From: a virus
DNA: 10,275 bases
Direction: 5' to 3' (one strand)
UHGV virus genome: UHGV-0180488
Part shown: positions 1 through 8,963 of the stretch, piece after piece
Position numbering within the stretch: position 1 is the first letter of the stretch
Layout: the number at the start of each line of letters is the position of its first letter
The notes under the pieces: generated by a model
The model's database searches: none
What the model saw: the letters and a program-made list of their open reading frames with translations, nothing else
What the model was told of the DNA's origin: nothing
Translations under genes and position numbers: made by a program

Positions 1-173
1 ATGCCAATAAGCGTACCGCGCTAAACAGTGCGCTGCTATTTCTACGCCGTAACGGTATACAGGTATATGATTCTCCCGTGCTGGTGGAACTTGCGGTGGG
101 GGCCGCAACTGGTGAAATCCCCGTATCTTCAGTAGCGGAAAAACTACGTGAATTATTTGGTTCCAATATTTGA
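1..173 (+). CDS. doc: Doc toxin (Fic-fold kinase of the phd-doc addiction module), 3' end only; 5' part lies outside the window
   Basis: Frame beginning at nt 3 translates to ...ANKRTALNSALLFLRRNGIQVYDSPVLVELAVGAATGEIPVSSVAEKLRELFGSNI and stops at TGA 171-173. This matches my recollection of the C-terminal half of phage P1 Doc almost residue for residue, including the NKR end of the Fic/Doc motif. Not in the supplied ORF track because it has no start codon in the window. Confidence 0.75.
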   Translation, partial: ANKRTALNSALLFLRRNGIQVYDSPVLVELAVGAATGEIPVSSVAEKLRELFGSNI

Positions 174-176
174 AAA

Positions 177-202
177 GAAGCCCGCTCAACCAGGCGGGCT
201 TC
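177..202 (-). terminator. Intrinsic terminator hairpin closing the minus-strand accessory operon (may also serve doc)
   Basis: Perfect 9-bp stem GAAGCCCGC (177-185) / GCGGGCTTC (194-202) with an 8-nt loop. On the minus strand the stem is followed directly by TTTTCAA. It lies 55 nt downstream of the 268-aa ORF stop and 4 nt after the doc stop. Confidence 0.55.
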
Positions 203-256
203 CTACTATCACTCAATGATTTTTTCTGCTGTCAGCCAGCTAATTCGGTGATGTTT

Positions 257-1063
257 TTAGGCGTCAGCATCAGCATCCTCCGCTACCTCTGCTTCCACAT
301 CAGCCACGGCTTCATCGGACGGTTCTTCTTTGGCCTGATCTGCAATCGCCGCACGGCATTTCGCCCTGGCTGTAGCGATTGCTTCAGCTCGCACATCATC
401 AGGAATCGTTGACGTGATATACATATCCAGTTCTTCGGCGCGGAACACTGTTTGGTCCAGATATTCGCGTAGCATCCAGGTAAATTCGAAATCACACGCG
501 ATAATCTCTGCGCTACCTTCCGCACCATTAGGGAAGTGGATAAACGCTTGTTTGGCTAAACCAATAACACGACATGCGGTTGCCAAAACAGCGACAACCA
601 GGTTTACATTTTCACACGCTACGGGCTGATTAACGCCGGAGATTACTCCATTTAACTGTCGGTTATATGGAAGGTAGTTTGAGATGCGTTCTACGCGCCA
701 TGTGCCAGTCAGGCTGCCATTTCTAAAGATGATTGGGGTAACGGACAGCCCAAGCTCGCGGATAAGTCGTTGCGCTATAGCATGATCATTAAACAGGTCC
801 AATGCTACACATTCGAAAGACTGTGCAAGGGTAAACAGTTCTTCCAGAGAGTAGTCTTTTCCTCTGGCTGTAATATGACGACGAGCGCCGTTATCTGCAT
901 CGCTCCATATAGCTACGCCATGCTCTTCATTCAGTTCTTCATTAAAGCCGAGATACGTCATGATAGTGCGTTCAATCGTGTCAAACGGCAGTGACATGTC
1001 GGCGTTAACAGCCACCAGCAGGCCATTACGCAAGCGGTATTGAATTGCTTTAGTATTTTCCAC
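257..1063 (-). CDS. Hypothetical protein, 268 aa, with a poly-acidic C-terminal tail
   Basis: Long ORF with a GTG start preceded by GGTGGAG 9 nt upstream; its start is 6 nt after the stop of the upstream gene. C-terminus EEPSDEAVADVEAEVAEDADADA. I recognise no catalytic motif. Confidence 0.7.
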   Translation of the reverse strand: MENTKAIQYRLRNGLLVAVNADMSLPFDTIERTIMTYLGFNEELNEEHGVAIWSDADNGARRHITARGKDYSLEELFTLAQSFECVALDLFNDHAIAQRLIRELGLSVTPIIFRNGSLTGTWRVERISNYLPYNRQLNGVISGVNQPVACENVNLVVAVLATACRVIGLAKQAFIHFPNGAEGSAEIIACDFEFTWMLREYLDQTVFRAEELDMYITSTIPDDVRAEAIATARAKCRAAIADQAKEEPSDEAVADVEAEVAEDADADA

Positions 1064-1069
1064 GTTAAA

Positions 1070-1738
1070 TCACTCCACCACAAACCAGTCACATGCCAGT
1101 AAGTCGCCTACAGAAGGAACCCACGGAACAACTACACCTTGTGCATTTTTTAAGGCGAAATAAGCACCATACGGAACGAGGTCGCCGGGGAAATATCCCT
1201 TAATGGCTTCCATTCGTGCCGGGTACTGTCCTTCAGGAACCAGCCAGCAGAATTGGTTTTCGCCGTTCCACCCGCGCCGGGCAACTTTCTTGCCATCCTT
1301 CAGCCACATCAGCGCGTCAGAAAAGTCGGCTGCTTCAAGGTCGATTTCTTCTTGTTTGGTAATGATGCCACCGGCAGCAATAGTTACGTCCCTGGCTGTA
1401 ATGAATGTCACACCATTGTGATCAATGCTGAGCGATACCCCATTTTCGAAGAAGTCGTTAGTCCGACTAAAGCCTTCTTCAAATGTTTTTTCTGGTGAAT
1501 AGGACAGACAACCATCTTGATCAACGAGCAGATACCCGCCAATCTCTGGTCTGTATTTTTGTAGAAACATTGCATCAACACGAACCGTTACGCCTTTTGG
1601 CTCAGTGACTGTGATATCACCCCAAAGAGTAAATGTGCCAATCAGATTGATCTTTTTGATTTTCGATGCGCGAATGATTCCGTGGTGTTTGTACTTAGGG
1701 AGCGTCTTTAAAAGCTCTTTCGTTGCTATGTTGTCCAT
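1070..1738 (-). CDS. Hypothetical two-domain protein, 222 aa: unknown N-terminal domain fused to a C-terminal DUF2829 (Tad2-like) domain
   Basis: ATG at 1738-1736 preceded by GGGGAAAG. The C-terminal ~84 aa (approx. nt 1070-1324), FSDALMWLKDGKKVARRGWNG...VVPWVPSVGDLLACDWFVVE, fits the DUF2829 pattern as I recall it (G-K-K-V-x-R-x-G-W-N-G near the start, P-W-x-P-S-x-x-D-L-L-A-x-D-W at the end). The N-terminal ~138 aa has no motif I recognise. Confidence 0.8.
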   Translation of the reverse strand: MDNIATKELLKTLPKYKHHGIIRASKIKKINLIGTFTLWGDITVTEPKGVTVRVDAMFLQKYRPEIGGYLLVDQDGCLSYSPEKTFEEGFSRTNDFFENGVSLSIDHNGVTFITARDVTIAAGGIITKQEEIDLEAADFSDALMWLKDGKKVARRGWNGENQFCWLVPEGQYPARMEAIKGYFPGDLVPYGAYFALKNAQGVVVPWVPSVGDLLACDWFVVE

Positions 1739-1800
1739 AGTCTTTCCCCTGCTTAAAACTTTTCGTACTTATGCGGTTGGCGCTTGATTTCAAAGTGGTC

Positions 1801-2247
1801 TTACGATGTGCTACCAAAGCCACCAGCACCACGTTCCGTTTCGTTGAGTTCTTCAGCCTCGACTAGTGAGACTTGTTCAACACGCTCAAAAATGCCTTGC
1901 ATGACAGCCATTCCAGGCTTGAGACAAACGCCTTCCCCGCCGGGATCAGTAATTAGTTTTGCCATGATTTCGCCGCGATAATCGGAGTCGATAATTCCTA
2001 CGCAGTTAGCCAGGCGAGTATGTTTTTTGCAGCCCAATCCGGATCGCGGATAGAGTTTCAGACACCAGCCGGGCGGGATCTCCATAGCCAGTCCGGTATA
2101 CACCCACCAGCTTGAGGAAATTGCACCATTGCTATCGACGCATGGTGTTATTTCAACAGCCTCAAAATCCATTGCTGCCGATCCTGCGGTGGCATAGAAC
2201 GGCAGTTTTGCACCAGGATGCAGGCGCTTCACTTTTACGTTAATCAT
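1801..2247 (-). CDS. dut: dUTP diphosphatase (trimeric dUTPase), 148 aa
   Basis: From the internal ATG at 2247-2245: MINVKVKRLHPGAKLPFYATAGSAAMDF...LYPRSGLGCKK...GIIDSDYRGEI...RGAGGFGSTS, which carries the conserved dUTPase motifs (RSG, G-x-ID-x-DYRGE, C-terminal R-G-x-GGFGS). The 249-aa track ORF 1801..2550 is an upstream extension that overlaps the preceding gene. Start is 2 nt after the stop of the 163-aa ORF. Confidence 0.9.
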   Translation of the reverse strand: MINVKVKRLHPGAKLPFYATAGSAAMDFEAVEITPCVDSNGAISSSWWVYTGLAMEIPPGWCLKLYPRSGLGCKKHTRLANCVGIIDSDYRGEIMAKLITDPGGEGVCLKPGMAVMQGIFERVEQVSLVEAEELNETERGAGGFGSTS

Positions 2248-2731
2248 GCTTCTTTGCTCTTTTGGTGAAGGTGTAAATTCGACGTTTAATATGCGGGGCA
2301 GTCGGTACGGATACGTTTGTGGATTCGATAATGCCTTGCTCTTCAAGAGAGCGAACGGCACGCAGGAACTGAGACGCATCGCCGCCACCGGACAGCCAGA
2401 ATTTACGGGCGTAAATGCTGCCGTTACGGATAATTTCAGCAACGACACGAGACTGGGTTTGTGTTTCACGATAGGCAAACAGTTGCCGGGCTTCTTCCGG
2501 CGTAATAGCCAGTTGATAGCCTTTCCCCTTATGGGCGCGAAGAAAACCAAACGACACCAGGTGTTTTAGTTCCCTGCGCGTAGTCTCATAACCGTATTCC
2601 TGTATCTGGAGATTGAGATCGGCGGGCTTTAGCCATGCTTCCGGCGACTCAGTAAGAAGCACCAGCAACTTACCGGATAGCTCAGGGGAGGAAGACGGGT
2701 AACAGTTAAGAGATGGGTAATAGTGTTTCAT
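2240..2731 (-). CDS. Hypothetical protein, 163 aa, probably two winged-helix-like DNA-binding modules
   Basis: ATG at 2731-2729 with AAGGGGG 6 nt upstream, overlapping the stop of the upstream 114-aa ORF (ATGA). The pattern of hydrophobic helices followed by G-K-G-Y and basic stretches (FGFLRAHKGKGYQL; IYARKFWLSGGG) suggests wHTH folds. This is inference, not a motif match. Confidence 0.7.
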   Translation of the reverse strand: MKHYYPSLNCYPSSSPELSGKLLVLLTESPEAWLKPADLNLQIQEYGYETTRRELKHLVSFGFLRAHKGKGYQLAITPEEARQLFAYRETQTQSRVVAEIIRNGSIYARKFWLSGGGDASQFLRAVRSLEEQGIIESTNVSVPTAPHIKRRIYTFTKRAKKHD

Positions 2732-3072
2732 TTGCGCCCCCTTACTGGATAATGAGAGCGGGCATCAACCGGAGCAATGAATCCGGTTGTAGGGCGGGAA
2801 AATACGAGATCAATCTTCTCGGTCATGGCGCGATAGTTTTCCTGATAGTGGGCCAGGAGTTTTTCAGCAGCAATGACGGTTACTCGCCGGACGTAGCTTT
2901 CAGCTTCGCCCAGGTTTGACCATTTCTTTTCGAGGGTAAGTACAGGTACGGTCTCAAGCCCTGTCATGATTCCAAACACCACGACAGCCTCGCCGCGCTT
3001 AACGCCAGCAGCAAAGGTTACGGTGTAACCGTCAACCGTGAAACGCCTTGATTCCGTGATACGACTCTGCAA
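2728..3072 (-). CDS. Hypothetical protein, 114 aa if the TTG start is used; first gene of the accessory operon
   Basis: ORF in the gap between dre and the 163-aa gene. The only plausible start is TTG at 3072-3070, preceded by CTGGGGG; an internal ATG at residue 36 would give 79 aa. Its stop overlaps the next gene's start. Confidence 0.5.
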   Translation of the reverse strand: MQSRITESRRFTVDGYTVTFAAGVKRGEAVVVFGIMTGLETVPVLTLEKKWSNLGEAESYVRRVTVIAAEKLLAHYQENYRAMTEKIDLVFSRPTTGFIAPVDARSHYPVRGRK

Positions 3073-3128
3073 AGTACCCCCAGAAAAAACAGGCGTACTT
3101 TACAGTAAAATGCAGTGTTAAAAAAGGG

Positions 3129-3138
3129 TGTTAGAAAT
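3129..3138 (-). promoter_or_regulatory. Operator-like motif TGTTAGAAAT between the dre stop and the accessory operon
   Basis: One of five copies of the 8-mer GTTAGAAA in the window, all intergenic. It sits in the 72-bp gap upstream of the 114-aa ORF, beside a TTAACA hexamer. Confidence 0.3.
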
Positions 3139-3144
3139 TTAATC

Positions 3145-4173
3145 TCATGAATCCATGAGGCGGCTATTGGCACCTGCTGTCACACCGCCACGACGAAGAT
3201 AACGCATCAGTGTTTCGGGCTTCTTCCATGTACCTTCCTGCATAATTTCAACCAAAGACACCTGTTTTTCAGCCATATCTATGGCGGCACCAACACGCGC
3301 ACTGTGGCCTGTCCACGTCCGGTAACGGCCTTTATTGGGGGTGGCATCACTCTTACCCAGCAGCGCCCAGGCGTCACTGAAAATCTTCTCCATCGCGGGC
3401 ACGGTTAATGGCGTGGTGGTGATCCGCGCTTTGTTGCTCCGGTGTACTGGCGGGAAAAGTATCGCATCCGGGTGCTCACGTAGTCCGGACGCGTCCAGCC
3501 AGTCATTGAGAACCGCAGTTGTCCAGCGGGAGAGCACCTTATCAAGTCCGGCGGCGGTCGTGATGGTTTTGGTGTGGGATACGTGAAGCGTTACAGTGTC
3601 ACCAGTCTGTTCCAGATCGCGAACACGCACGCGGGACATTTCAGCCATACGCAACAGGGTATTGTAGGCCAGGAACAGAAAAGCCCGGTTGCGCAGATCC
3701 ACCAGCCTGTCAGAGCGGGAGAGCAGCACGTCGAGCAGTTTCAGGTCATCCCAGCGCAGGGGCACTGCCTGGCCTGTGCGTTCGCCTTTTTCGGTTGCAG
3801 CTTCGCGCCGGATGCGCCGCATCGCCAGGGATACGCTTTTGTCATCAGAGAGTTGCGGCAGTCCGCATTGTGACAACAGCATATTGAGCATGGCGTAATG
3901 CTTTTCAATGGTGGTTGAAGCCAGATCCGCATCATGCAGTTGAAGCAGGTATTCGCGGGCAGCTTCCGGGGAGATCGGAAACCACGCAAGACCACGAGCG
4001 TGGCACCATCGCGCCCAGGAGTGAAAGACCAGGCGCAGATCGCGCAGTGTATTAGGTGAGTAAGCACCCTGGTCATTAAGGAACTGCATGAAATTTTTGG
4101 CGGCTTCCTGGTACTCAGCACCAATATCACGAAGAAACATGCCAGGATTACCGGAGATAATAAGTTTACTCAT
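3145..4173 (-). CDS. dre: Cre-family tyrosine site-specific recombinase, Dre-like, 342 aa
   Basis: The translation aligns along its length with P1 Cre as I recall it (e.g. AYNTLLRMAE vs AYNTLLRIAE; GHSARVGAAIDMAEKQVSLVEIMQEGTWKKPETLMRYLR vs GHSARVGAARDMARAGVSIPEIMQAGGWTNVNIVMNYIR, with the catalytic Tyr context conserved), at roughly 40-45% identity by eye. A rox-like site rather than loxP lies 153 bp upstream, which is why I call it Dre (the Cre homologue of phage D6). ATG at 4173-4171 with AGAGGTGA upstream. Confidence 0.92.
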   Translation of the reverse strand: MSKLIISGNPGMFLRDIGAEYQEAAKNFMQFLNDQGAYSPNTLRDLRLVFHSWARWCHARGLAWFPISPEAAREYLLQLHDADLASTTIEKHYAMLNMLLSQCGLPQLSDDKSVSLAMRRIRREAATEKGERTGQAVPLRWDDLKLLDVLLSRSDRLVDLRNRAFLFLAYNTLLRMAEMSRVRVRDLEQTGDTVTLHVSHTKTITTAAGLDKVLSRWTTAVLNDWLDASGLREHPDAILFPPVHRSNKARITTTPLTVPAMEKIFSDAWALLGKSDATPNKGRYRTWTGHSARVGAAIDMAEKQVSLVEIMQEGTWKKPETLMRYLRRGGVTAGANSRLMDS

Positions 4174-4316
4174 GTAATCATTTCACCTCTATAAATTGGT
4201 GTCGCTACGCGAAAAAACAAAAAATGACAGGCTAGTTATCCGTGAGAATTTAAAATTTAAGCCCTTGATTCGAACCATGACTTTTTGAGTCTGTCAATAC
4301 TGATCGTTTGATCATT

Positions 4317-4344
4317 ATTATATACTAACTTTAAATAATGCCAA
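4317..4344 (-). promoter_or_regulatory. Putative sigma70 promoter for dre, with its -35 inside the rox-like site
   Basis: On the minus strand: -35 TTGGCA (4344-4339), 16-bp spacer, -10 TATAAT (4322-4317). Predicted start near 4310, inside the GATC pair at 4302-4305 and 4310-4313. Sequence-only prediction. Confidence 0.35.
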
Positions 4345-4357
4345 TTATCTAAAGTTA
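4326..4357. other. rox-like recombination target site for the Dre-like recombinase
   Basis: TAACTTTAAATAAT (4326-4339), spacer GCCA (4340-4343), ATTATCTAAAGTTA (4344-4357). This is the rox site as I remember it (TAACTTTAAATAATGCCAATTATTTAAAGTTA) with one difference, C instead of T at 4349, which makes the arms imperfectly symmetric. Flanking C (4325) and G (4358) extend the palindrome. Confidence 0.85.
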
Positions 4358-4509
4358 GAAAGGGAGAAAATTTTTTTGAAAAAAAGGATCAAGTGATCAA
4401 AAAAGAAACCGTGCTATTAGTGGTAGTTAGACGCTTAAACCCAGGATTTTGAAGAAGGTTTTCTAAGAAGAACAATAAAAAATTCCATGTTGATCCTTTA
4501 CTCATCGTG

Positions 4510-4537
4510 TTGTACCGCTTAAATTTGAGTACATAAT
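4510..4537 (+). promoter_or_regulatory. Putative sigma70 promoter for the c1-like gene
   Basis: -35 TTGTAC (4510-4515), 16-bp spacer, -10 CATAAT (4532-4537). Predicted start around 4544-4546, about 25 nt before the ATG at 4570. Sequence-only prediction. Confidence 0.3.
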
Positions 4538-4541
4538 TTTA

Positions 4542-4551
4542 TGTTAGAAAA
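4542..4551 (+). promoter_or_regulatory. Operator-like motif TGTTAGAAAA over the predicted c1 transcription start
   Basis: Copy of the GTTAGAAA 8-mer lying 19-27 nt upstream of the c1-like ATG and just downstream of the predicted -10, a position typical of an autoregulatory operator. Confidence 0.35.
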
Positions 4552-4569
4552 CTAATTCGAGTAGGAAGG

Positions 4570-5607
4570 ATGAATAAAAGAACAATCGAGAAAGAGTACA
4601 AACAGTTCCGGTCTGTTGCTGAACGTTGGAAGGAGCTGGTGGTATCAAACTCAGTGTTCCATGACACCAGTTATAACGGAGAGGAATTCCGTCATGTTGC
4701 TTTGACACATGATCCAGACGTCTTGAAAGAAGCCGAAGAATGCCTGGTCGCCTGGAAAGCATTTGTGGACGTATGCCGCAATGCTGGTGGGAAAAAGCTG
4801 AATATCGTTGAGACAGTATATCTTCCGATCCCATTCATCATTGAGGACACGAATCAAAGTACACACATTGTCGTATCTACAGCTTCGACTACCAGAACGT
4901 TCACTCGCGAGAGTTTGCTGAAAAAGTACGATAATGTCATTAAGAAAAGTAAAAAAAGCCCTATCTTTTCTCAGGTCGTAGATGCCCTTGAAAAAGAAAG
5001 ACATTTCTTTGCAATGGAGCCGGAAGGCGAACTCTATCGCGCACGAAAAGATGACTATACCGATGTGGTGCTGACCTCTGATCTCACATCTGACAACACC
5101 CTGTCTCGCTTAAGAGTGGGTGCGCACGGGGCGCTGGTGTTCTCACGCAATAAAGAATTGAAGATCCCTGTGGTTAATAACGTAGATGAACGCCGTAGTA
5201 TTACCGTTTATTCCGGTGTGAAGCCTATCCCTTGTGGCCCGCTGGGCGATTTTAGTCTGTATCGTGTGAACGACATCACCAGGAGTCAGCCAAGCTATGT
5301 GGCTAAGGCCTATATTCTGCGTAGCATTGAGTCCAGAAACCTGAGTTTTAACAACAAAAGCCAGGCGCTTCTGAACTCTACGCCGCCTGAGATCCTCCAG
5401 GTCATTGAAAGAAAGGTGAACGCGGCGAGAGAGGCGCTTATCCGCCTGGAAAAAATGGACATGGAGTTGATTGATGTCATGATGGCATCAGGCGATGACC
5501 TGACAGGTATCCGGCTGACCGATGCACGCAAGAAATACGGCAAAGAAATTGAGGAACGATACGGATACACGTTCAATCAAACAATGTCAGCAACAAAACT
5601 TCGTTAA
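4570..5607 (+). CDS. c1: C1-like phage repressor of lysogeny, 345 aa
   Basis: Position matches the P1/D6 layout (convergent with pacB, divergent from the lox/rox-recombinase unit). Local matches to P1 C1 as I recall it: LNIVETVYLPIPFII vs LNIPKTILYPVPNIL, VNNVDERRSITVYSGVKPI vs INGEFEKAKFSLYDSIEPI, SLYRVNDI vs KIYRLADI. Overall identity is low (perhaps ~30%) and the protein is about 60 aa longer than P1 C1. Confidence 0.7.
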   Translation: MNKRTIEKEYKQFRSVAERWKELVVSNSVFHDTSYNGEEFRHVALTHDPDVLKEAEECLVAWKAFVDVCRNAGGKKLNIVETVYLPIPFIIEDTNQSTHIVVSTASTTRTFTRESLLKKYDNVIKKSKKSPIFSQVVDALEKERHFFAMEPEGELYRARKDDYTDVVLTSDLTSDNTLSRLRVGAHGALVFSRNKELKIPVVNNVDERRSITVYSGVKPIPCGPLGDFSLYRVNDITRSQPSYVAKAYILRSIESRNLSFNNKSQALLNSTPPEILQVIERKVNAAREALIRLEKMDMELIDVMMASGDDLTGIRLTDARKKYGKEIEERYGYTFNQTMSATKLR

Positions 5608-5613
5608 TCCACC

Positions 5614-5633
5614 AGCCCCGCAAAAGCGGGGCT
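5614..5633. terminator. Hairpin between the convergent c1-like and pacB-like genes
   Basis: 8-bp stem AGCCCCGC (5614-5621) / GCGGGGCT (5626-5633) with an AAAA loop, followed on the plus strand by TTAAATAT. It sits in the 26-bp gap between the c1 stop (5605-5607) and the pacB stop (5634-5636). The U-tract is weak on both strands. Confidence 0.5.
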
Positions 5634-7139
5634 TTAAATATCCAGTTCCGGCATTTCGACATCCGCCAGCACTTTATCGCGCAAGGCCAGCATTTCAGCC
5701 GTAGCCTCTTCATTTGCAGGGGTGTAATCCACCAGCCAGGCAAAACAGTAGGTATCCCAACGGTCTGGGGAAGGAATATTCAGTTTTTGCCGCATGACTT
5801 TCTTTTCTGTCATTTTAAGCGTGCCGTCTTCCTTCAACTCATAAGGAATACGTGATGCTTGCGTGGCAGTCTTCTCGCTGGAATCAAGCCGCATCCGACC
5901 GCTCATAATCGCATCCCTTGCAGAAAAGTTGGCGAAGGTACGCTGATTTGCATAACGTTTTTTGTCCTCTTTCGAGAACATTGGGGATCCCCACCGTATA
6001 CGGACAGGGCTTGCACCACGGCGTACCAACTGATCAGCCGTTGCCGCGCCGATACCGTCTGAGTCAACAGCAATGGTGATATTGGGGTAACGTTCCTGAG
6101 TGCATTCGTTATAGATAAAGTCGGCAAACATCAGCGGATCCATTGTGCCCGGCATTTCCAGAATCTTAAACGGAACAACGCGGCGTTTTTCACGCTTCCC
6201 TGATACTTTCATGATATTCAGGACAGACTTATCGCGACCATTACCAACGTCAGCGGTAGCCACCCAGCCCCAGTCTTTTTCCAGCAACACCTTGCGCCGT
6301 GCGGCGCGATCACATTCGTCACGACCAAGCAAGTAACCGTTAATTTCTCGCGGGAATTGCCCCAGCACCTTAACCATGTACTCAAGGGAATCCCGCCCAC
6401 CGTATTCAATCAGTTTTTCCTTGATAAATTTAGGCTCAACAAACGGCGACTCTTCCGAATTCAGAATGATCGATGTCCAGGTGCCATTCGGATTATGTTC
6501 GCTTTTCGCATTTTTATGGTGTGAATCATAAAAATAACCACTCGGACGCGTCGGCTGTGACATCATGAGCATACGGTTATCCTTCTCCGTCAATGCCCCG
6601 GTTAAGATGTTTATCGCTTTGTCAGAGATACCTGATGCTTCATCAAGTATCAGGAATAAGTGTTTGGCGTGCTCGCCCGCCAGTGATTCCTCGTTACCAG
6701 GCCTGTAGCCTTTACAAAGCACTTCCCAGATCCCCTTACGTGAGCGTTCGTAAAAAACCGTGTCAGTGAGGATAAAGTATTGTTTAAGCCAGCTATGCCG
6801 TCTGACAGCGTTCTGCCAAAAGATTTTGACGTACTTAAATACACCACTTTTGACCTGGCTAATTTTGTTTGCGACGATGACAACACGCGCATCGGGGAAC
6901 AGAATCATATAGATCAGCAACAGCATGGCTGTCAGGGATGATTTACCCGTACCGTGGCCTGATGTGACCGTTGTTCTGCTGCCAATATCCTGAACGGAAT
7001 TAATGATTTGCTCTTGCTGGTGGGATGGTATCAAGCCAAATAACTCAACAACCGCAAGAGCAAAGTTTAGTCTGTATTTAATCGACAATTGCCGCCAGCG
7101 TGGGTCGCTGGTTACGCACTTAATCTTCCCTCCCGCCAT
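5634..7139 (-). CDS. pacB: Terminase large subunit, PacB-like, 501 aa
   Basis: Walker A TSGHGTGKSS and Walker B LFLILDEASG in the N-terminal half, followed by an acidic nuclease-like region (IAVDSDGIG). Size is similar to P1 PacB. ATG at 7139-7137 with AGAGGAAG upstream, 2 nt after the stop of the upstream gene. Confidence 0.85.
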   Translation of the reverse strand: MAGGKIKCVTSDPRWRQLSIKYRLNFALAVVELFGLIPSHQQEQIINSVQDIGSRTTVTSGHGTGKSSLTAMLLLIYMILFPDARVVIVANKISQVKSGVFKYVKIFWQNAVRRHSWLKQYFILTDTVFYERSRKGIWEVLCKGYRPGNEESLAGEHAKHLFLILDEASGISDKAINILTGALTEKDNRMLMMSQPTRPSGYFYDSHHKNAKSEHNPNGTWTSIILNSEESPFVEPKFIKEKLIEYGGRDSLEYMVKVLGQFPREINGYLLGRDECDRAARRKVLLEKDWGWVATADVGNGRDKSVLNIMKVSGKREKRRVVPFKILEMPGTMDPLMFADFIYNECTQERYPNITIAVDSDGIGAATADQLVRRGASPVRIRWGSPMFSKEDKKRYANQRTFANFSARDAIMSGRMRLDSSEKTATQASRIPYELKEDGTLKMTEKKVMRQKLNIPSPDRWDTYCFAWLVDYTPANEEATAEMLALRDKVLADVEMPELDI

Positions 7140-7141
7140 CG

Positions 7142-8464
7142 TCAGTCTTCCTCTGGCGGGGTAATAGCAATATCGTCGTAAATATCAGCCGTAGCGGATG
7201 GGTCAAGCTCCAGTCCTTCATCATCGGCTTCAAACTCACCAGCTTTTCTTTCACCGTTGGCGTCGTAATCCCCCAGGCCTAACTGGTCAACTACTCTGGC
7301 AACATCTTCACGGCGCTGTTTGAGCCACTCTGAAAGCTCTGCTTTTTGTTTGGCGTACTCTTCGGCTTCACGCTGGATCTGGTCATCATCAACATCACTG
7401 CTGTCAACTACTGGCGGTTCCAGAAGCGTGATAGCTTTCGCCGCACGCGCAGCCAGGATTGCAGGAACACTTACCCCTTGCCGCTCGATGTATTCCGCAA
7501 CACCTATATCGTCCAGTTCTTCGCGCTCGCGCATACGTATAGCGGTTGCAATAACCCTGGCGGCGCGTGCATCAGCGCCAAGACGATAGTCAATCTCTTT
7601 GCTACGTTGCTCTGCCTGTAGGCGTGCAATGTCCAGTTTTTCTCTGGCCTCAGCCTCTTTAAATGCCTGCTGCCGCGCCCCCTGAATCAGTTTTTCCTGG
7701 CCTTGCTGGAGTTTTTGCTCTGTCTGATAAATGGCTGCGAGGCGGCTGATGAAGTCGTTCATGTAATAGGCGGCATCCTGCATGAGGCCGCAGAGACGCT
7801 GGGCCGGGTGTATCCCTTCCGGCTCGCCATCGCCTAAAATATCAATTTCTTTACGTAGCCGTGCCGCCTCCATGTCTACAATTGACTGGTATTCTATGGC
7901 GCGTTCCTGAGCCATCAGGATGGCCTTACGCAGATGTTCAGCCGCACCGTTCTGCATCATTTCACGGGCGACATTTTTCGACGGCAAGGTGGCACATTGT
8001 GCTGATTCGCCGTGGATCATTTGCGATGATCTCTGACTTGAAGATGCCTTTTTATCCTTTTCTGGGATCATTTTTGCTTTTTTATCGGCAAATGATCCCT
8101 TTGATAAATCCACTAACTCACTGTTATCAATGGGCTTATCAGCATGATCCGCGTTACGCTTGCGTGGCATCTCCCTGAATTGACTTGTCGCCGGCTTATT
8201 GTCAGTTTTTGTAAATTCTGATTCTTTTCCGCTCGCTCGTTGCTGTTTTTTTGTCCCACCAGCACGGGGTTGCTGGCGTGTTCTGGCGCGGTTCTTTGAT
8301 GGTTTAACTTTGGCCTGCACCTCATTTTTTTTCATATTGAGATGCTTTCTGGCAGTGTTGAAACTAAGGCCATTTTGTTCACAGTATTCCTTTACCGTGA
8401 TCCCTTTTTCCTCTTTCAGCGCCAGAAACCGGGCACGATGCTCTTCCCAATTAACCAGTGTCAT
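7142..8464 (-). CDS. pacA: Terminase small subunit, PacA-like, 440 aa
   Basis: N-terminal HTH-like segment (ITVKEYCEQNGLSFNTARKHL), a basic low-complexity linker, a coiled-coil-like middle and an acidic C-terminus. It lies immediately upstream of, and is coupled to, the large terminase gene, and contains a GATC cluster like the P1 pac site. Called by synteny and architecture, not by strong sequence recall. Confidence 0.65.
   Translation of the reverse strand: MTLVNWEEHRARFLALKEEKGITVKEYCEQNGLSFNTARKHLNMKKNEVQAKVKPSKNRARTRQQPRAGGTKKQQRASGKESEFTKTDNKPATSQFREMPRKRNADHADKPIDNSELVDLSKGSFADKKAKMIPEKDKKASSSQRSSQMIHGESAQCATLPSKNVAREMMQNGAAEHLRKAILMAQERAIEYQSIVDMEAARLRKEIDILGDGEPEGIHPAQRLCGLMQDAAYYMNDFISRLAAIYQTEQKLQQGQEKLIQGARQQAFKEAEAREKLDIARLQAEQRSKEIDYRLGADARAARVIATAIRMREREELDDIGVAEYIERQGVSVPAILAARAAKAITLLEPPVVDSSDVDDDQIQREAEEYAKQKAELSEWLKQRREDVARVVDQLGLGDYDANGERKAGEFEADDEGLELDPSATADIYDDIAITPPEED
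8015..8149. other. Candidate pac (packaging cleavage) site: cluster of five GATC hexamers inside pacA
   Basis: GATC at 8015, 8028, 8066, 8094 and 8146 (five in 135 bp against about 0.5 expected), in TGATC/GATCA contexts that resemble the TGATCA/G elements of the P1 pac site. The rest of the 1.3-kb gene has only two GATC. Confidence 0.45.
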
Positions 8465-8853
8465 ACAGCAACACCACGGCGTTTAATGGCTTCATTCCAC
8501 AATCTGTTAGCCATGTTCACCAGTTCACGGCGTTCCGTCTGATTCTTGCCAGTGATAAATCGGTTGGAATTCTTTACAAGCAGGCGGTCAAACTGCGGTG
8601 TACGTCCGCGTACCTTAAACTGATACCCGTCAAGGCCATGAAGCCAGTATTTGCGCGGGTATACGCGGTCATCGCGCTCACAAATAGCCCTGCTCGAACG
8701 AACAAAGTGACGGATGATATTGTTAACATTGACACGTGATACGTGAAGATGAGGATATTTATCTTTGGCGAGGGTGGTTATCTCAGTGACTGTAAGATAA
8801 CAGTCTTTCCTGATCATGATATCCGCTATTTCAGCACTGCTGATTTTATCCAT
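8461..8853 (-). CDS. Hypothetical protein, 130 aa, first gene of the packaging operon; possibly an Lpa-like late activator by position only
   Basis: ATG at 8853-8851 with GGGGGGA upstream; its stop overlaps the pacA start (ATGA). In P1 the late-promoter activator gene lpa precedes pacA, but I cannot confirm sequence similarity. Confidence 0.55.
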   Translation of the reverse strand: MDKISSAEIADIMIRKDCYLTVTEITTLAKDKYPHLHVSRVNVNNIIRHFVRSSRAICERDDRVYPRKYWLHGLDGYQFKVRGRTPQFDRLLVKNSNRFITGKNQTERRELVNMANRLWNEAIKRRGVAV

Positions 8854-8933: not shown

Positions 8934-8963
8934 TGTTAGAAATTACAGGTTTTATTTCTAACA
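8934..8963. promoter_or_regulatory. Inverted repeat TGTTAGAAAT-N10-ATTTCTAACA upstream of the packaging operon; candidate operator
   Basis: Perfect 10-bp arms at 8934-8943 and 8954-8963 with a 10-bp spacer, containing two inverted copies of the GTTAGAAA 8-mer. It lies between the stop of the 131-aa gene (8964-8966) and the 130-aa gene start (8853), upstream of TATAAA and TAATAT hexamers on the minus strand. Confidence 0.4.

Follow-up and report, generated by a model that had tools for sequence, protein, structure and literature searches.

Background

The closest described counterparts of the locus presented here are the ImmC regions of the plasmid prophages P1 and P7 and that of phage D6. In P1, the region of about 700 bp from lox to the repressor gene c1 contains coi, imcB and imcA together with the five operators Oc1a-e; a sequence-only reading that preceded our analysis had likewise put these three genes ahead of c1, between it and the operators. 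Coi inactivates C1 one-to-one, Lxc stabilises C1 on its operators and counters Coi, and the operator itself is asymmetric (PMC8546580). Further asymmetric operators are dispersed over the P1 genome at lpa, ref and mat. In both P1 and P7 the repressor gene is located between a Cre-type recombinase with its site and the convergent gene pacB, and the repressor promoter is flanked by operators.

The original description of the D6 immC region by Sauer and McDermott in 2004 reportedly noted deletion and substitution relative to P1. The D6 sequence was deposited in the same year (AY753669), and a second record followed in 2017 (MF356679); neither contains anything between rox and c1, and D6 possesses no coi, imcA or imcB. 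The layout that we discuss below is hence already known, and our DNA largely re-describes it.

Phage-plasmids of the D6-like type are frequent in Escherichia, Salmonella and Shigella, and some of them carry resistance genes or have merged with resistance plasmids. The usual assumption is that they decide between lysis and lysogeny in the manner of P1, yet both Coi and Lxc are missing from their switch. An independent study of a D6-like plasmid also detected no Lxc and suggested that lysogeny is controlled differently (PMC6799933).

Gene order and relatives

The window, i.e. the whole stretch of 10,275 nucleotides of the virus genome UHGV-0180488 that was analysed, matches D6-like plasmid prophages over its entire length. 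Phage D6 covers positions 1-4341 at 84% identity. A larger share, 93-97% of the window, aligns at 91-94% identity with complete plasmids of Shigella dysenteriae, E. coli and E. fergusonii. The genes follow each other as doc, several small genes, dut, orf3, orf2, dre, c1, pacB, pacA and lpa; from dut to lpa, with rox between dre and c1, both order and strands are those of D6. The gene named dre in AY753669 (3145-4173, minus strand) encodes a Cre-like tyrosine recombinase of 342 aa (Pfam Phage_integrase, E 3.5e-15). The c1-like gene (4570-5607, plus strand) is an ORF of 345 aa, exactly the length of D6 c1, and converges with pacB (5634-7139, minus strand), beyond which pacA (7142-8464) and lpa (8461-8853) are likewise encoded on the minus strand. 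A strand-neutral GC-rich hairpin (5614-5633; -17.2 kcal/mol, z -4.5) separates the convergent stop codons of c1 and pacB and is a probable bidirectional terminator. We consider it quite probable that positions 4174-5633 represent the ImmC-equivalent of a D6-like, P1-family plasmid prophage and form a self-contained, autoregulated repressor cassette.

Despite this shared layout, the window is not a copy of D6. Its proteins are 69% (C1), 89% (Dre) and 67% (PacA) identical to those of D6, and the differences in C1, PacA, one rox arm, the rox-c1 spacer and the operator flank lead us to treat it as a separate D6-like lineage, to which plasmids of E. fergusonii, Shigella dysenteriae and E. coli are closest. 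An interpretation of c1 as a divergence hotspot or as the product of an immunity swap was dropped, given the similar identities of C1 and PacA.

Among deposited phages, a C1 of the 345-aa D6 type was found in D6 only. Plasmids are a much richer source: tblastn recovered a D6-type C1 from 155 plasmid records, mostly of Escherichia, Salmonella, Citrobacter and Shigella, and in six of these the layout was inspected. The compact arrangement of dre, rox and c1 is common to the 35 D6-like loci examined. Loci with a C1 of 44-52% identity keep it, with no gene called in the interval from the recombinase to c1, and it is found also in Pantoea and Citrobacter plasmids with a C1 of 27-30% identity. Because it occurs in loci with such highly divergent C1 proteins, the compact layout is best understood as ancestral to the D6-like lineage. 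A profile search of genome contigs with the family alignment yielded no confirmed locus, and searches of viral contigs for the nearest short-form relatives (P0023 and P0024) gave no match.

The rox site and the rox-c1 spacer

The rox-like site is the strand-neutral 32-mer TAACTTTAAATAATGCCAATTATCTAAAGTTA (4326-4357), an inverted repeat with 14-bp arms and one arm mismatch, which departs at one position (T to C at 4349) from rox as read from the D6 record. Overlapping it, a sigma-70 promoter-like site, TTGGCA-16-TATAAT (4317-4344, minus strand), points toward dre, matches the consensus at 11 of 12 positions and has its -35 within the rox spacer. The TATAAT box and the rox core are conserved in relatives, and we infer from the sequence that this element may act as a promoter in the direction of dre.

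From the rox-like site to the c1 ATG at 4570 the distance is 212 bp (4358-4569), compared with 210 bp in D6 and with the roughly 700 bp of P1, and this spacer, in contrast to its P1 counterpart, holds no gene. The sequence-only reading had put the gap at about 210 bp, close to the measured value, and had asserted that no ORF of the size of coi, imcA or imcB lies within it; this holds, since no ORF on the c1 strand exceeds 19 aa. The ceiling of about 12 codons that it had given is accurate for ATG starts (longest ORF 11 aa) and is slightly surpassed when GTG starts are admitted (19 aa).

The comparison was extended to 26 distinct spacers from the 35 loci. They measure 197-257 bp, plus one of 368 bp, and their longest c1-strand ORFs range from 0 to 33 aa, plus one of 84 aa. 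When both strands were scanned down to 8 codons, no ORF was common to spacers of different sub-lineages, and a conserved small ORF was accordingly not found in the relatives. The spacer itself returned no match to Rfam at gathering or at permissive thresholds. These data show that the 212-bp spacer encodes no conserved protein.

The two halves of the spacer differ strongly. An alignment of eight relatives reveals the left half as hypervariable and, with a 16-bp indel, as the most variable part, and in sequence it is unrelated to the corresponding part of the D6 spacer. The right half is conserved, and the promoter and operator-like blocks that it contains are the same in D6. A probable c1 promoter is located at 4497-4525 on the plus strand, with a -35 TTTACT (4497-4502), a 17-nt spacer and a -10 TAAATT (4520-4525). 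Its consensus score of 8/12 is below the threshold of the scanner; both hexamers and the 17-nt spacing are retained, while the intervening sequence varies, even where C1 is 44-52% identical. The putative promoter is bracketed by two inverted motifs of the TGTTAGAAAA type, 85 bp apart in the window, which would correspond to the operator-flanked repressor promoter of P1 and P7. The upstream one, TCTTAGAAAAC (4458-4468, minus strand), has one mismatch to the TGTTAGAAAA core; its TTTTCTAA block is invariant in the alignment of eight relatives, and in four divergent loci the site is a perfect TGTTAGAAAA. The downstream one, TGTTAGAAAACTAA (4542-4555, plus strand), lies between the -10 and the ribosome-binding site, has an exact core and is the top PWM match in the window (31.7 bits); almost all 35 D6-like loci retain it, at 84-85 bp from the upstream site. 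A ribosome-binding site, TAGGAAGG (4562-4569, plus strand), can be read directly before the start codon, and its GTAGGAA is kept in the eight aligned relatives. The spacer thus has the appearance of regulatory DNA, in which two operator-like sites accompany a conserved, probable promoter of c1. By occupying the downstream site, between the -10 and the ribosome-binding site, C1 would shut off its own promoter.

An operator-type motif in D6-like genomes

Chi aside, no 10-mer in D6 is more strongly over-represented than TGTTAGAAAA. The exact core GTTAGAAA occurs there 13 times, and according to our reading of the D6 annotation tables 11 of these 13 are intergenic. Sites are found upstream of c1, upstream of ref, in opposite orientation at the 3' end of ref, beside icd and elsewhere; one precedes the late major capsid gene by 135 bp. 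The sites at the 5' and 3' ends of ref are arranged as Oref and Omat are in P1. All seven matches with at most one mismatch in the window are intergenic, where intergenic DNA makes up an estimated 11% or so of the sequence.

Several of these positions recur between genomes. Upstream of lpa, at a position equivalent to that of P1 Olpa, the window has an inverted pair of exact TGTTAGAAA sites (8934-8963; 21 bp from centre to centre), which is found again in the Shigella plasmid and belongs to the same putative regulon as the c1 sites. Another exact TGTTAGAAA site (3129-3137, plus strand), between dre and the downstream orf2, has counterparts at the equivalent place in D6 (89949) and the Shigella plasmid (44799). 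The closest complete plasmid possesses 15 exact sites, three of them inverted pairs like the one at lpa.

On the basis of its over-representation, intergenic placement and synteny, TGTTAGAAAA(C/T)TAA is probably the operator of D6-type C1 and distinct from that of P1. The P1 operator ATTGCTCTAATAAATTT has no match in the window even with up to three mismatches, and a comparison by eye finds 9 of 17 positions in common between it and TGTTAGAAAA(C/T)TAA. An initial candidate for the operator, GCTTAAATTT, had two exact copies and was replaced by the genome-wide enriched TGTTAGAAAA. A role of TGTTAGAAAA as a late-promoter element was also considered and discarded, as the -22 box of P1 late promoters is a different sequence, A[AT]GTGACTT. 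C1 bound at the sites outside the c1 region would silence lpa, ref and further early operons.

On its 3' side the operator core tends to be followed by T-rich sequence in the sub-lineage of the window, in contrast to AC in D6. The core itself is unchanged across C1 proteins that are only 44% identical, which would be unusual if the core alone set immunity specificity.

The C1 core and a possible resemblance to Tus

Relationship of the c1-like protein to P1 C1 is distant: BLASTP aligns the two at 24% identity over aa 77-236 (E 4e-8). The c1-like protein matches phrog_1678 over almost the full profile (E 1.2e-131, positions 2-346 of 347), compared with positions 1-280 only for P1 C1. PF27008 (Phage_P7_repressor_C1) is recorded on all 12 of 12 homologue clusters, one of which is 95% identical; a Pfam set without PF27008 gave no match for the c1-like protein, P1 C1, Coi or Lxc. 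The NCBIfam equivalog NF041318 (phage_rep_C1) is hit with 28.8 bits and its cut-off of 500, which P1 C1 exceeds with 607.5, is not reached. The gene is located, as in P1, between a Cre-type recombinase with a lox-type site and the convergent pacB. Judged by sequence and gene order, the 345-aa protein is a long-form, distant C1-family repressor, with a repressor core homologous to that of P1 and P7.

This C1-family DNA-binding core (phrog_1678) occupies aa 1-232 (4570-5265, plus strand). A profile search of 1.84 billion representatives returned a family of 86 representative clusters, and all members share profile positions 1-245, a region that ends near residue 232-245. Most representatives are 247-290 aa long and match these positions only.

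The AF2 model of the full-length protein (pLDDT 83) predicts an alpha/beta fold for the core. Foldseek finds a sole significant PDB match for the full model, the E. coli protein Tus (PDB 1ECR, 4XR0-2), with E-values of 1.3e-7 to 3.2e-7, a probability of 1.00 and about 305 aligned columns. The superposition yields TM-scores of 0.33-0.40, short of the 0.5 looked for in a global match, and a sequence identity of 8%, and it involves a predicted model only. At the sequence level no signal to Tus was detected, even when a family profile built from 75 sequences was used. Searching the PDB by sequence and by profile retrieved no solved structure of any C1-family member, the fold search of the full model against BFVD gave no match, and a link between C1 and Tus was not found in the open-access literature. 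Tus binds its asymmetric Ter site as a monomer, and asymmetry is a feature of the P1 C1 operator too. The two proteins differ in function, replication fork arrest in Tus versus repression of transcription in C1.

The C-terminal module

The sequence-only reading had described the protein as about 60 aa longer than P1 C1 and had located the surplus at the C-terminus. Both points were borne out: the lengths are 345 and 283 aa, and family alignment and census place the extension after the shared core. Counted from the invariant R232, 113 residues follow in the c1-like protein versus 46 in P1 C1; the tail of the latter is basic, whereas the former is predicted to be structured and helical. The module (aa 233-345 and the stop codon; 5266-5607, plus strand) consists in the model of a hairpin (H233-270/H273-306) and a three-helix cap (316-342). 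Within the full AF2 model these two long antiparallel helices and three short capping helices reach pLDDT values above 90, and modelled alone the module attains a pLDDT of 88.8 and a pTM of 0.77. Residues in the D6-type tail are invariant across the clade, and a dN/dS of about 0.16-0.18, compared with about 0.08 for the core, indicates purifying selection. The extension is a real, selected and autonomous module.

Its distribution within the family is limited. Tail length in the family forms a continuum from 6 to 171 residues; a D6-type tail of about 113 residues is present in roughly a fifth of the 86 clusters, and P1 C1 and the majority of the family lack it. Searched by fold against the PDB on its own, the tail gave a best E of 2.8.

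What the tail does can be approached from the spacing of the operator-like sites. Most likely, the C-terminal hairpin would let operator-bound C1 molecules associate with each other, and such an association could span the paired sites, those at c1 with their 85-bp spacing as well as the inverted ones at lpa and ref with 21 bp. We prefer this bridging role as a guess because the 85-bp and 21-bp site pairs are conserved. The tail might also take over part of the role that Lxc has in P1, i.e. stabilise binding. Against a role in self-association counts that P1 C1, which is without this tail, still loops DNA and uses bivalent operators. Alternatively, the tail could be a docking surface for an antirepressor.

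A more far-reaching reading, which we regard as unlikely, joins the tail to the resemblance with Tus. The C1-family repressors of P1-like phages would have the Tus fold and clamp asymmetric sites as monomers, and the D6 lineage would have added a C-terminal coiled-coil arm that bridges operator-bound monomers (at the site pairs of c1, 85 bp apart, and of lpa and ref, 21 bp apart), builds in the stabilising role of Lxc and makes Coi dispensable. If true, this would define a structurally new class of phage master repressors and would illustrate a modular evolution of control logic.

Missing partners and alternative readings

P1 Coi, ImcA, ImcB and Lxc were searched by tblastn in the window, the complete sequences of D6 and of the Shigella plasmid and all retrieved loci, and nothing credible was found. 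The best match to Coi (E 0.033) falls inside the tail sheath gene, with the limitation that the query has only 69 aa and a very divergent analogue could escape; ImcA and ImcB gave nothing below E 0.04. Beyond the window, tblastn against the D6 genome and the closest complete plasmid likewise gave no coi-like gene. Since neither of these two encodes a homologue of Coi or Lxc, the control of C1 must differ from that in P1, and the earlier suggestion that antirepression may work differently is thereby supported. The other option raised by the sequence-only reading, that the extension stands in for missing partners, gained no support from the profile and fold comparisons.

A rival reading is that the spacer hides a regulator that plays the role of Coi or the Imc proteins. 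The candidates are a small protein, such as that of a 38-aa ORF on the minus strand (4389-4505) or a 19-aa ORF on the plus strand (4393-4452), and an antisense RNA; the left half of the spacer has no function assigned to it. An intact 38-aa ORF is found in the window and its two closest relatives. It is, however, not retained in D6-type or E. marmotae-type spacers, where the ORF has 23 aa or is non-homologous, it is preceded by no Shine-Dalgarno sequence, and the few residues that are shared fall on the DNA blocks conserved as -35 and operator. Five spacer types possess no plus-strand ORF of at least 10 aa; the ORF region is the very part of the alignment that varies most and includes the indel, and the lack of an Rfam match speaks against an RNA. 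We hold such a hidden regulator to be highly improbable. Only marginally better is the prospect that the C-terminal module is a fused former partner, Coi- or Lxc-like, so that the extension literally replaces the missing genes. That Coi and Lxc are both missing from D6-like genomes, that the tail folds as an independent unit when modelled alone, and that its 113 aa are somewhat more than the 82 aa of Lxc or the 69 aa of Coi would all agree with a fusion. Yet hhalign assigns the tail profile probabilities of only 0.2% for Coi and 0.1% for Lxc, the continuous variation of tail length displays no clean fusion pattern, and fusing C1 to Coi, its inactivator, would be self-defeating; we deem a fused partner very unlikely.

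A reading with somewhat better prospects, though still an unlikely one, concerns the motif: TGTTAGAAAA could mark something other than C1 binding, for instance a second repressor, a host protein or part of an early promoter, and C1 would have its true operators elsewhere. The invariance of the core across highly divergent C1 proteins would be in line with this, as would the D6 site in front of the late major capsid gene. The occurrence of the sites in both orientations and at variable distances to genes is nevertheless unlike a promoter element, and the sites differ from the late-promoter -22 box of P1. Moreover, the sites occupy the positions of P1 Oc1, Olpa, Oref and Omat, our own comparison reveals a TTG..TA..AAA..T skeleton common to the motif and the P1 operator, and D6 offers, apart from Chi, no comparably enriched word. 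We thus retain TGTTAGAAAA(C/T)TAA as the probable C1 operator; together with the putative promoter and the separable tail, it provides an experimental handle on a C1 switch that works without Coi and Lxc.

Lytic induction of D6-like prophages cannot use Coi, as a coi homologue is missing, and presumably would proceed via ImmI-type antirepressors. The D6 ant genes found no match in the closest complete plasmid by tblastn. In D6 itself, where orf18 and orf82 are the candidate Ant proteins, two icd-ant (icd-antirepressor) modules are annotated, and these would be the obvious alternative route.

Discussion

The predicted fold of the repressor core (aa 1-232, 4570-5265) has a single significant counterpart in the PDB, the Tus protein of E. 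coli, to which Foldseek aligned the AlphaFold model of C1 over about 305 columns with E-values of 1.3e-7 to 3.2e-7, a probability of 1.0 and a TM-score of 0.33-0.40. No likeness between C1 and Tus was found by sequence and profile comparison, nor did we find a connection between the two proteins in the open-access literature. Tus is a replication terminator protein that acts as a monomer on an asymmetric site; the operator of C1 is asymmetric as well. In the sub-lineage of the window, lpa, ref and another early operon are preceded by inverted pairs of operator-like sites with a centre-to-centre distance of 21 bp (window 8934-8963; 32177-32206 and 34070-34099 in locus L048; 9647-9676 in the Shigella plasmid NZ_CP026818.1). 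Because of this inverted, 21-bp arrangement, the sequence suggests that two associated repressor molecules bind such pairs of putative operators.

A strong promoter-like site (TTGGCA-16-TATAAT, 11/12 matches; 4317-4344, minus strand) is directed towards the recombinase gene dre and is kept in the alignment of relatives. Its -35 hexamer lies within the rox spacer, and recombinase expression from this predicted promoter could therefore be coupled to the occupancy of the recombination site. Five GATC (Dam) sites were read from the sequence at 4302, 4310, 4387, 4394 and 4492, i.e. within 194 bp (4302-4495) spanning rox and part of the spacer to c1, where about 0.8 are expected; Dam sites are likewise annotated in the cre regulatory region of P1.

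Coi-sized reading frames are present in the longer recombinase-c1 spacers of other loci, unannotated and on the c1 strand (+): one of 68 aa upstream of a 277-aa c1 in E. kobei (L053, 2508-2714), one of 68 aa upstream of a 316-aa c1 in Serratia (L052, 2498-2704), and one of 84 aa upstream of a 359-aa long-form c1 (L046, 3640-3894). None of the three resembles P1 Coi; they may be Coi analogues or else chance ORFs.

The closest complete plasmid, Shigella NZ_CP026818.1, gave no tblastn match to the ant genes of D6, its repL is annotated in two pieces (24442-25403), and the element may be a defective prophage. Its PacB shares only 77% identity with that of the window (5634-7139), whereas Dre, C1, Lpa and the products of the small ORFs flanking pacB are 96-100% identical, so that the terminase large subunit gene looks like a mosaic replacement. 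Exactly between the stop codons of the convergent c1 and pacB lies a GC-rich hairpin (5614-5633; -17.2 kcal/mol, z -4.5), overlooked by a simple terminator scanner, which is likely a bidirectional terminator.

The same doc-to-c1 segment, with an intact c1 of 345 aa, is found at 5001-10781 of pK91 (NZ_CP029912.1), a conjugative IncFIB plasmid of S. Typhi carrying the resistance gene qnrS1. Stranded on this non-phage plasmid, c1 could confer immunity to D6-like phages; it is followed by a pacB remnant, cut off beside an IS26 transposase gene.
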